Below, in pieces: positions 54,001 to 57,000 of a stretch of 58,725 nt of DNA (the stretch's first letter is position 1; each line of letters starts with the position of its first letter). Made by a program: the position numbers. This DNA comes from a virus (Duplodnaviria; Heunggongvirae; Uroviricota; Caudoviricetes). Where the stretch lies: IMG/VR virus record IMGVR_UViG_2718218104_000006. One strand, written 5' to 3'.

Positions 54001-57000
54001 GCTTCCGGTTGTGGCACTCCGCGAAATGGCGCAGCGGTAAGTATGGCGGGGTTATTCCTTCCCCGTTGAGGACACCGGGTTGTCAGGTTGACCATACGCT
54101 TAAGTGACAACCCCGCTGCAACGCCCTCTGTTATCAATTTTCTGGTGACGTTTGGCGGCATCTGTTTGCCCATGAACTGATGTCCGCCCTTTTTAAAGTG
54201 AATTTTGTGATGCAGTGAATGCGGCTAAGCGCACGCGGAACAGTTAAAGCTAAAAACAGTGTTATGGGTGGATTCTCTGTATCCGGCGTTAATTGTTAAC
54301 TGGTTAACGTCACCTGGAGGCACCAGGCACCGCATCACAAAATTCATTGTTGAGGACGCGATAATGGAAACGTTATTACCAAACGTTAATACGTCTGAAG
54401 GTTGTTTTGAAATTGGTGTCACTATCAGTAACCCTGTATTTACTGAAGATGCCATTAACAAGAGAAAACACGAACGGGAGTTATTAAATAAAATATGCAT
54501 TCTTTCAATGCTGGCCCGTTTACGTCCGATACAAAAAGGATGCTGGCAATGAATACAGCATTTGCACTTGTTCTGACAGTTTTTCTTGTTTCCGGAGAGC
54601 CAGTTGATATTGCAGTCAGTGTTCACAGGACAATGCAGGAGTGTGTGACTGCAGCAACCGAACAGAAAATTCCCGGTAACTGTTACCCTGTCGATAAAGT
54701 TATTCACCAGGATAATAACGAAATCCCGGCAGGTCTTTAAAACAGTTCCGTAATAAACATCCGATTTCATTCTTATATGCCAGCAATGGCAGGGATTTGT
54801 TCACCCTTAAATCTGTAATGAGGTAAAACAAAATGAGTAAAGTCTTTATTTGCGCCGCCATTCCGGACGAACAGGCAATAAAGGAAGAAGGTGCAGTCGC
54901 TGTAGCCACTGCCATTGAAGCCGGTGATGAACGTCGCGCCCGCGCAAAATTTCACTGGCAATTCCTGGAGCATTATCCGGCTGCTCAGGACTGCGCTTAT
55001 AAATTTCTTGTTTGCGAGGATAAACCCGGTATACCCCGCCCTGCCCTCGATTCCTGGGATGCTGAATATATGCAGGAAAACCGCTGGGATGAGGGGGCTG
55101 CTTCCTTTGTCCCGGTTGAGACTGAATCCGATCCGATGAACGTCGCTTTTGACAAGCTGGCCCCTGAAGTACAGAACGCTGTCATGGTTAAGTTCGACAC
55201 ATGTGAAAACATCACCGTTGATATGGTGATTAGCGCGCAGGAATTGTTGCAGGAAGACATGGCAACATTCGACGGACATATCGTTGAAGCGTTGATGAAA
55301 ATGCCAGAAGTTAACGCCATGTATCCGGAGCTTAAGCTGCATGCCATCGGGTGGGTTAAGCATAAATGTAAGCCTGGTGCCAAATGGCCCGAAATTCAGG
55401 CAGAAATGCGCATCTGGAAAAAACGTCGCGAAGGTGAACGCAAGGAAACCGGAAAATACACGTCTGTTGTTGATCTCGCCCGCGCCAGAGTCCACCGACA
55501 GCACACTGAAAACTCAGCAGAAAAAATCCCCCCTGTCACTGCAGTCATTCGTCGCGAATATAAGCAGACATGGAAAACACTGGATGACGAACTGGCCTAC
55601 GCTCTCTGGCCTGGTGATGTGGATGCCGGAAACATTGACGGCAGCATCCATCGCTGGGCAAAAAATGAAGTTATCGACAACGACCGCGAAGACTGGAAGC
55701 GTATCTCGGCATCAATGCGCAAACAGCCTGATGCCCTTCGCTACGACCGCCAGACTATTTTTGGCCTTGTCCGTGAACGTCCGATCGACATTCACAAAGA
55801 CCCTGTGGCACTGAACAAATACATTACTGAATACCTGACTACAAAGGGCGTGTTTGAAGATGAAGGAACAAATCAGAGCGCAACTGACACTCTCTCGTCG
55901 CCAGTACCAGAAACTGATGCAGTGGAAACGGCAATTCCGGACAACGAAAAAACCGAATGCAAAGTGGAAGTCGAACCATCTGTAGAGCGTGAGGGGCCGT
56001 TCTACTTCCTCTTCACCGACAAGGATGGCGAAAAATACGGTCGCGCAAACAAACTTTCTGGTCTGGATAAGGCGCTGGCTGCCGGGGCTACTGAAATCAC
56101 AAAAGAAGAATATTTTGCCCGAAAAAATGGCACATACACAGGCTTACCGCAAAATGCAAATACCGCACAAAATTCTGAACAACCAGAACCGGTAAAAGTT
56201 ACCGCTGACGAAGTAAAGAAAATTATGCAGGCAGCCAATATCAGCCAGCCTGACGCCAATCAGTTGCTCGCCGCATCACGTGGTGAATTTGTTGCAGGGA
56301 TTAGCGACCCGAATGATCCGAAATGGGTGAAGGGGATTGAAACCCGCGATTCTGTGAACCAGAACCAGCAAGAAACGGAACAGAACGACCAGAAAGCGGA
56401 ACAAAACAGCCCAAATACGCAACAAAACGAGCCAGAAACGAAACAACCTGAGCCAGTAGCGCAACAGGAACCGGAAAAAGTCTGCACCGCCTGCGGTCAG
56501 ACCGGCGGCGGCAACTGCCCTGATTGTGGCGCGGTGATGGGCGACGCAACATACCAGGAAACATTCGATGAAGAGTATCAGGTTGAAGTTCAGGAAGATG
56601 ATCCGGAGGAAATGGAAGGCGCTGAACATCCACACAAGGAGAACACTGACGGCAATCAGCATCACGATAGCGATAATGAAACTGGCGAGACGGCAGATCA
56701 CTCAATTAAGGTGAACGGTCATCAAGAAATCACATCCACCAGCAGGACGTGTGACCATCTAATGATCGACCTTGAAACCATGGGAAAAAATCCTGATGCC
56801 CCGATCATCTCAATAGGTGCAATATTTTTCGATCCGCAAACCGGAGATATGGGACCGGAATTTAGTAAGACTATCGATCTGGAAACTGCTGGCGGGGTCA
56901 TTGATCGGGACACCATTAAATGGTGGCTTAAGCAATCACGCGAAGCGCAATCTGCCATTATGACCGATGAAATCCCGTTAGATGATGCACTATTACAATT

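Follow-up and report, generated by a model that had tools for sequence, protein, structure and literature searches.

Does the DicF-like small RNA (sRNA) of an O157:H7-type prophage repress ftsZ alongside the division inhibitor DicB, or do only some of the functions of DicF persist in it? Among prophage sRNAs, DicF is a textbook case, and its copies are treated as equivalent in the literature on enterohemorrhagic Escherichia coli (EHEC). The locus studied here lies in IMG/VR record IMGVR_UViG_2718218104_000006 (58,725 nt; "the window" refers to this whole stretch), whose sequence marks it as a Qin/dicBF-like lambdoid prophage of the E. coli O157:H7 type, with an early-left (PL-type) operon that carries the known prophage dicF-dicB cell division inhibitor cassette. 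An earlier, sequence-only reading had proposed that a DicF-like sRNA and DicB, both under the DicA/DicC immunity switch, can block host division through FtsZ and MinC. We find that the cassette is a known and well-understood one, but that its sRNA belongs to a rare and discrete allele with a swapped hairpin, which is maintained and has escaped annotation. Modeling of its pairing indicates that this sRNA most likely no longer targets ftsZ and keeps the targeting region at its 5′ end.

A DicF-like sRNA precedes dicB

The 19-nt 5′ seed of DicF, TTCTGGTGACGTTTGGCGG, occurs a single time in the window, at 54140-54158, where 0.01 occurrences would be expected by chance. In a permissive 1.3-kb search, the whole Rfam DicF model (RF00039) aligned to 54140-54189 with a score of 43.5 bits (E = 6.9e-8), compared with 76.7 bits for K-12 DicF. 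The covariance-model check suggested by the sequence-only reading was thus divided: the alignment spans the full model, but its score lies below the curated Rfam gathering score of 48 bits. For this reason DicF went unreported in a default Rfam scan of the window, which returned six families (STnc100, ALIL, sok, two tRNAs, and AgvB).

The seed, the Rfam alignment, and the predicted fold place the sRNA at 54139-54194. Its predicted fold is a hairpin of 13 bp with UUUUU directly after it (-17.3 kcal/mol, z = -2.8), and nt 1 to 15 stay unpaired; the corresponding K-12 hairpin and U-run have a stability of -15.9 kcal/mol. The Rho-independent terminator hairpin and U-run characteristic of DicF RNA are therefore both present and by analogy would provide an Hfq-type 3′ end. 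The single-stranded 5′ region of DicF (UUUCUGGUGACGUUU, the xylR/pykA seed) is also present and predicted to be unpaired, with nt 1 to 20 identical to those of K-12.

The position of the sRNA is orthologous to that of K-12 DicF: the ydfC-side leader precedes it and dicB follows, with conserved flanks and the same gene order. The last ~110 nt ahead of DicF (54046-54158) have zero mismatches to K-12, and ~25 nt 3′ of the hairpin are also identical. From the end of the U-run (54194) to the dicB ATG we measured 169 nt, in agreement with the ~170 bp proposed earlier, and both the sRNA and dicB lie downstream of a dicA homolog, as the same reading had it. Over its 461 bp, the dicF-dicB region as a whole shows 100% identity with chromosomes of E. 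coli O157:H7 and 93.8% with the dicF-dicB region of K-12 Qin.

The hairpin is replaced and predicted ftsZ pairing is lost

Within the hairpin, 15 of 34 columns differ from K-12, whereas the ~950 nt around it differ at 52 of 925 columns (Fisher P = 6e-10). Alignment to K-12 dicF and dicB, another of the checks suggested beforehand, therefore held for nt 1 to 20 of the sRNA (identical) and for DicB (89% identical) but not for the hairpin, which has been replaced. Nucleotides 30 to 36 read GCCCAUG in the window allele (loop sequence, GUUUGCCCAUGAAC) instead of UACUCCG as in K-12, and the anti-Shine-Dalgarno CUCC is consequently lost.

K-12 DicF uses its 3′ region to pair with the ribosome-binding site of ftsZ and its 5′ end to pair with xylR (Balasubramanian et al., PMC5069750). 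Published mutants, whose positions we derived from the oligonucleotide table of that paper, distinguish these activities (PMC5069750). DicF3 (GGU to CCA at nt 6 to 8) loses xylR repression and keeps ftsZ repression, and DicF9 (CUC to GAG at nt 32 to 34) has ftsZ repression abolished and xylR repression kept. In DicF21 (UAC to AUG at nt 30 to 32), repression of ftsZ and pykA is abolished and xylR is repressed, while DicF23 (G to C at nt 36) is weakened on ftsZ and abolished on pykA. Regulation of manX occurs through the DicF 3′ end (PMC5861419).

We modeled pairing with a sliding-window duplex energy plus opening energy, giving an accessibility-corrected net value in kcal/mol that was calibrated on five published alleles. 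(Plain RNAduplex, which on long sequences gave unrealistically long duplexes and no discrimination between alleles, was replaced by this model.) The model reproduced each published phenotype on which it was run, and alleles that repress ftsZ scored about -10 kcal/mol (Table 1). The wild-type contact joins DicF nt 26 to 53 with ftsZ -28 to -1 (hybridization energy, -26.5). In the model, the window allele lacks the ftsZ-complementary loop (nt ~26 to 53, with the core UACUCCG over the ftsZ Shine-Dalgarno [SD] sequence), and only weak 5′-tail contacts with ftsZ are left, as in DicF9. It is predicted to belong to the ftsZ-null, xylR-active class; since the 5′ seed is unchanged, xylR-type seed targets should still be repressed.

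Table 1. Modeled net pairing energies (kcal/mol) of DicF alleles and their published effects
sRNA	ftsZ energy	Effect on ftsZ	xylR energy	Effect on xylR
K-12 wild type	-10.1	represses	-13.6	represses
DicF3	-9.8	represses	-7.1	lost
DicF21	-7.4	lost	-13.6	represses
DicF23	-7.6	weakened		
DicF9	-6.3 overall / -5.6 over SD	lost	-13.5	represses
Window allele (modeled values)	-6.3 overall / -5.6 over SD		-13.6	

The sequence-only reading had itself named the conserved ftsZ-pairing region as the feature on which its claim would turn. That region is absent, so by this yardstick the ftsZ reading fails, as a calibrated prediction; with the loop replaced, the modeled pairing equal to that of the DicF9 null, and the Rfam score subthreshold, the DicF part of the proposed division block is not supported.

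In three window-type loci (L160, L163, and L166, from IMG/VR), the 5′ seed has lost 1 nt (UUUCUG-UGACG), and this deletion weakens the modeled xylR duplex from -13.6 to -10.7 kcal/mol.

The window allele is a mosaic of Qin-type and Rac-type segments

Through more divergent matches we reached a DicF-like hairpin in the sieB-kilR leader of the Rac prophage, which scores 39.1 bits against the Rfam DicF model. Like the window hairpin, it has the stem arms GGCGGCAUC and GAUGUCCGCC and the tail CCCUUUUUAAAGUGAAUUUUGUGAUG, and it is followed by a homologous ~170-nt leader with the CACCUGGAGGCACCAGGCAC hairpin, ahead of a small division inhibitor gene. Unlike the window hairpin, it is without the DicF 5′ seed (5/15), its loop is longer and of another sequence, and the gene that follows is kilR instead of dicB.

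Compared segment by segment, the 5′ tail of the window allele matches Qin (K-12) at 15/15 positions and Rac at 5/15. The 5′ stem arm matches at 8/9 and 9/9, respectively, the 3′ stem arm at 5/10 and 10/10, and the 70 nt downstream of the hairpin at 65/70 and 60/70; the loop is unique with respect to both. By these identities, the window allele is a mosaic in which a Qin seed is combined with stem arms of the Rac type and with a new loop. A fourth hairpin allele, with a 6-bp stem, precedes dicB in strain 510016, and from these sequences the hairpin before kil-type genes is evidently a recombination hot spot with a loop that is free to vary. This copy shows that a short recombination patch can, in nature, uncouple the 5′ seed of DicF from the loop, its other targeting module.

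In E. coli strain 3059, dicB is separated from a canonical DicF by an inserted cassette of the P1/P7 type (L181 1781-2635). It contains a c4 antisense RNA (81.9 bits), isrK (67.3 bits), and a gene for a regulator of the Rha family, and the insertion further points to the interval between DicF and dicB as a hot spot of recombination.

The allele is maintained in O157:H7 and O55:H7 beside canonical copies

An allele-specific query found the window-type allele in 290 of 5426 complete E. coli genomes, in every case at ≥99% identity, and nearly all 290 carriers are O157:H7 or O55:H7, EDL933 and 86-24 among them. A K-12-type DicF query matched 3969 genomes in the same set. (A count of 607 records at ≥99% was rejected as an allele count because it included partial-length matches.) Intermediates are nearly absent, with 6 of 4267 records falling between the two identity classes. 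A scan of phage and prophage contigs for the exact 5′ seed returned a K-12-type loop at ~115 of 120 loci and a window-type loop at only two, while a scan for the new hairpin returned 23 contigs; a scan of species-representative genomes added Escherichia albertii, the sequence being essentially invariant. Contig matches to a degenerate seed were mostly chance matches in unrelated phyla and were set aside, the real ones being Escherichia/Shigella and a few contigs of metagenome-assembled genomes with the same sequence. The two types coexist: O157:H7 strain PV15-279 has two K-12-type copies and one window-type copy, and one 96-kb IMG/VR contig holds both.

Conservation was measured as per-segment identities over 14 distinct haplotypes, since column variability is distorted by loci with insertions. 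The 56-nt RNA is 98 to 100% identical over these haplotypes, in which the upstream leader falls to 74% identity, dicB to ~90% (~47% at one locus), and ydfD to ~79% (~32% at one locus). In 23 of the 23 loci that extend far enough downstream, the window allele is followed by an intact 62-aa dicB, which occurs there as four or more protein variants, and the DicB variant of the window also follows K-12-type DicF in 22 loci; the sRNA and dicB alleles therefore reassort independently. This reassortment, together with the invariance of the RNA over diverged backgrounds, the intact dicB, and a hairpin no less stable than that of K-12, argues that the window allele is not a decaying pseudogene, even if recent clonal spread could account for part of the invariance.

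None of the RefSeq records matched by our DicF queries has an annotated dicF feature, K-12 MG1655 included. An Rfam-based catalog of EDL933 noncoding RNAs lists four DicF loci (PMC5331693). DicF_1, DicF_2, and DicF_4 have the canonical ACUCCG loop, DicF_3 is the Rac-type hairpin described above, and the window allele is not listed in that catalog. Threshold-based annotation, whether by Rfam gathering score or in RefSeq, overlooks the allele. The canonical O157:H7 copies share with it their genomes, the type of prophage operon, and the 5′ seed (with one G-to-A change in DicF_1) but keep the ACUCCG loop that it lacks.

We put forward tentatively, as a possibility, that O157:H7 and O55:H7 strains such as EDL933 and 86-24 carry an unannotated extra DicF paralog that has kept the 5′ seed, for xylR-type and possibly virulence-related targets, and has lost the ftsZ/pykA/manX module by a Rac-type terminator swap. 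If this is true, seed-dependent regulation would be possible without division arrest, and published EHEC strains with "all dicF copies deleted" may retain one seed-bearing copy, just as Rfam-based catalogs may miss it. That annotation overlooks the allele bears on how multicopy deletion experiments in EHEC are interpreted and on the practice of calling "dicF" an ftsZ inhibitor by name alone.

A DicA-type switch is predicted to control the operon

The hallmarks of a P22 immC-like immunity switch are present upstream of the cassette: divergent CI/C2-like and Cro-like genes, shared putative operators, and a predicted promoter downstream of dicA. The palindrome TTAG-N6-CTAA, found twice between dicC and dicA, recurs within this promoter. 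It has four copies in the window, against 0.6 expected (four were reached in 0 of 100 shuffles), and three of the four fall within the ~600-bp immunity region, two intergenic and one in the promoter. Inverted-repeat pairs I1 and I2 likewise connect the dicC-dicA intergenic region to the region downstream of dicA. The promoter aligns position for position with the K-12 sequence TTGACC...TTAGTCATGGCTAA downstream of dicA, which is taken as dicBp, and the transcribed leader that follows (52446-52503) is almost identical to that of K-12.

A scan of the window found no plus-strand terminator-like sites between the promoter and dicF. Because the promoter holds the operator-type palindrome common to the dicC-dicA region and no terminator intervenes, the sequence gives good support to control of the operon by the DicA-type repressor that the prophage itself encodes. 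The placement of the module under the DicA/DicC switch, as proposed earlier, thus stands as far as its upstream dicA and dicC homologs, shared operators, and dicBp-like promoter are concerned, and repression itself is what these elements would predict. The K-12 promoter and operators have the same half-sites with other spacers; given these spacers and a DicA that is only 63% identical, the immunity specificity probably differs from that of Qin.

Leader 52446-52503 also holds a small hairpin, ACACCGCACGGUGU (~52451-52464), whose placement recalls a nutL/boxB-type element.

DicB is intact and follows a recurrent leader element

The 62-aa DicB open reading frame (ORF) anticipated by the sequence-only reading is intact. 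It matches Pfam PF05358 over residues 1 to 62 of 62 with 127.4 bits (cutoff, 27), and 55 of its 62 residues are identical to K-12 DicB, the seven substitutions being clustered at the C terminus. As dicB is intact and homologous to K-12 DicB, a MinC-dependent division block is plausible by analogy; the proposed block through FtsZ and MinC keeps this DicB-MinC arm but loses the unsupported action of DicF on ftsZ.

A second hot spot of divergence from K-12, at 54524-54568, has 7 differences in 30 columns and coincides with the overlap of the dicB C terminus and the ydfD N terminus. It corresponds to a change of the DicB C-terminal sequence from LMPKGCAQ to PIQKGCWQ.

The spacer between dicF and dicB (54178-54383) matches Rfam STnc100 with 32.5 bits, below the gathering score of 47. 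Such subthreshold matches recur at 31 to 36 bits in five loci, namely the window, K-12, two other dicB loci, and the Rac kilR leader; the four matches outside the window are at L001 4090-4299, L181 1604-1751, L182 1571-1789, and L183 1515-1701. From its sequence, the spacer element looks like a common 5′-leader element before prophage kil-type genes. A compensatory pair change distinguishes its hairpin, CCUGG-AGGCA-CCAGG, from the CCGGG-AGGCA-CCCGG of the STnc100 consensus.

A seed-only DicF allele in a repressor-controlled dicB operon as the probable explanation

From the sequence anatomy, allele distribution, and pairing energetics described above, we infer how repressor binding, RNA processing, Hfq dependence, and the in vivo target spectrum would fit together. 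Taken as a whole, a seed-only DicF allele with a swapped hairpin in a repressor-controlled dicB operon is, in our judgment, the probable explanation of this locus. In the lysogen, a DicA-type repressor would bind the TTAG-N6-CTAA operators, one of them over the promoter at 52409-52438, and keep the operon silent. Upon derepression, transcription would proceed via three small ORFs and the conserved leader into the hairpin at 54154-54188. DicF biogenesis involves RNase E cleavage, with RNase III giving a longer form (PMC9438474). By analogy with K-12, termination at the hairpin and an RNase E cut at 54139 would yield an Hfq-type sRNA of ~51 to 56 nt, and RNase III would give a longer form of it here as well.

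Transcripts that read through the hairpin would allow expression of dicB and ydfD and, farther downstream, of the exonuclease, xis, and int genes. DicB, by homology, would prevent septation by way of MinC and its action on FtsZ rings. The sRNA would act via its 5′ seed only, repressing xylR-type targets, with the hairpin swap having removed both the anti-Shine-Dalgarno ACUCCG loop, which K-12 DicF needs for ftsZ and pykA, and the 3′ segment through which manX is regulated. As the sRNA is without the ftsZ-pairing loop, division inhibition by the window copy would occur through DicB alone. The sRNA would then be both a seed-only sibling of canonical DicF and a terminator or attenuator ahead of dicB.

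Several points weigh against this explanation. That ftsZ regulation is lost is the prediction of a computational model with only five published alleles behind its calibration, and this model still gives a weak contact (-5.6 kcal/mol) between the 5′ tail and the ftsZ SD. Expression, processing, and Hfq binding of the window allele are carried over by analogy from K-12, and the minus-strand 77-aa gene inside the operon could hinder read-through from dicBp. Near-invariance of the RNA could reflect recent clonal spread of O157:H7/O55:H7 rather than selection. Reviews describe "four copies" of dicF in EHEC, each of which is reported to complement the narL phenotype (PMC8139620); if the window allele is among those four, it is clearly functional, a result that would be silent on ftsZ. 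Finally, the allele may already be described in the primary EHEC paper (Melson & Kendall 2019).

Alternative readings of the sRNA

The hairpin might instead be a terminator only, that is, a tL-like intrinsic terminator or attenuator before the kil-type dicB, yielding an RNA without a role in trans and with a 5′ tail that serves as a processing or antitermination signal. This would suit the related hairpins with the same U-run and leader that stand before kilR in Rac, without a DicF seed, and before dicB in strain 510016, with a 6-bp stem, since their loops vary; it would also suit RNA sequencing of EDL933, in which some DicF loci have few or no reads (PMC5331693). However, the 5′ tail of the window allele is identical to the experimentally validated xylR seed, is predicted to be fully accessible, and forms the same modeled xylR duplex as the wild type. 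Moreover, the 98 to 100% conservation over diverged backgrounds covers the whole 56 nt, beyond the stem, and K-12 DicF loop mutants are still active on xylR. We consider a terminator without further function unlikely.

It is quite improbable that the allele is a neofunctionalized sibling of DicF, in which the new loop (UGUUUGCCCAUGAACU) would recognize new host or phage targets and give O157:H7 a partly new regulon. The replacement of a discrete patch, with only those 6 of 4267 records intermediate, and the near-invariance of the allele in 290 genomes beside canonical copies would both fit such a role. Yet the loop is only 6 nt long, the adjacent GUUU/GAAC bases are locked in the stem, and sites complementary to the loop in the 58.7-kb window are not beyond chance, being the locus itself plus one chance-level match.

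The least probable reading is that of a canonical DicF, which would repress ftsZ translation by antisense pairing so that DicF and DicB both block division: the orthologous position, the identity to K-12 of the 5′ 20 nt, ~110 nt upstream, and 25 nt downstream, the Rfam alignment over the full model (E = 6.9e-8), and the possible weak interaction of the 5′ tail with the ftsZ SD speak for it, but the score of 43.5 bits is under the gathering score, the loop nt 30 to 36 needed for ftsZ repression in K-12 (DicF9, DicF21, and DicF23) are replaced, and the predicted ftsZ interaction is the same as that of the DicF9 null.

The new loop region (54162-54178; UGUUUG-CCCAU-GAACU) bears some resemblance to the sense strand of ftsZ +2 to +20 (UGUUUGAACCAAUGGAACU). 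As 80 of 2000 shuffles were as good, this is probably due to chance, and we rejected it.

Layout of the operon and its surroundings

The gene layout (Table 2) was compiled from the ORF list, Pfam, and the RefSeq annotation of an identical O157:H7 record. The order matches that of the K-12 Qin dicBF operon (ydfABC-dicF-dicB-ydfD): leftward dicC, rightward dicA, promoter, small ORFs including ydfC, leader, sRNA hairpin, ~170-nt spacer, dicB, ydfD, and exonuclease. Outside the hairpin the two loci are 93% identical over 950 nt, and they share the TTAG-N6-CTAA operator promoter design. Unlike K-12 Qin, the window has a replaced hairpin without the ftsZ/pykA-pairing loop ACUCCG, a 99-aa ORF in place of ydfA and ydfB, and a 640-bp insert before the leader.

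Table 2. Features of the dicC-to-int region of the window
Feature	Position	Strand	Basis or remarks
dicC homolog (Cro-like regulator, 75 aa)	51599-51826	-	83% identical to K-12 DicC; Pfam P22_Cro, 49.7 bits
dicC-dicA intergenic region, two putative operators	51827-51902	.	TTAG-N6-CTAA palindromes at 51837-51850 and 51888-51901
dicA homolog (CI/C2-like helix-turn-helix repressor, 135 aa)	51903-52310	+	63% identical to K-12 DicA; Pfam HTH_3, weak Phage_CI_repr
dicBp-equivalent (PL-like) promoter, TTGACC-N18-TAAATT	52409-52438	+	Promoter scan; palindrome TTAGGCTATTCTAA at 52422-52435
99-aa ORF	52574-52873	+	ORF list, RefSeq annotation of identical record, PHROG
ydfC	52946-53164	+	ORF list, RefSeq annotation of identical record
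135-aa ORF (phrog_1363)	53187-53594	+	ORF list, RefSeq annotation of identical record, PHROG
77-aa ORF (phrog_10348), strong AGGAGG SD	53572-53805	-	Annotated; opposite strand inside operon
Conserved noncoding leader, holds 5′ processing site context	53810-54138	+	~95% identical to K-12
DicF-derived sRNA	54139-54194	+	Seed/tail nt 1-15, 54139-54153; hairpin, 54154-54188; loop GCCCAU, 54168-54173; U-run, 54190-54194
dicF-dicB spacer / dicB leader	54195-54363	+	Conserved hairpin CACCUGGAGGCACCAGGCAC; weak Rfam STnc100 match
dicB, 62-aa division inhibitor	54364-54552	+	Pfam DicB, K-12 identity, RefSeq annotation as dicB
ydfD homolog (DUF1482, 63 aa)	54549-54740	+	Overlaps dicB stop codon; Pfam DUF1482, 88 bits; RefSeq
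823-aa exonuclease, then xis and int	from 54833		Downstream genes of the operon

The 640-bp insert (53187-53805) is absent from K-12 Qin and separates ydfC from the DicF leader. Its 135-aa ORF (plus strand) and convergent 77-aa ORF (minus strand) overlap by 23 nt at their 3′ ends. Pfam and PHROG searches assigned no function to the neighboring small ORFs.

The same prophage carries a cluster of RNA genes in its late region (41630-42241). This cluster comprises a full STnc100 match on the minus strand (41691-41899, 175 bits), the anti-GcvB sponge AgvB on the plus strand (41630-41689, 56.6 bits, barely at the gathering score), and two minus-strand tRNAs (42012-42085 and 42169-42241). A hok/sok-type antitoxin RNA, sok, lies at 46874-47023 on the minus strand (103.9 bits), where the matching record annotates hokD. 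An ALIL frameshift pseudoknot of the IS3 family (IS1203) is located at 37910-38026 on the plus strand, and the copy number and positions of IS1203 in the window differ from those in O157:H7 strain PV15-279, so that the window derives from another O157:H7 strain.

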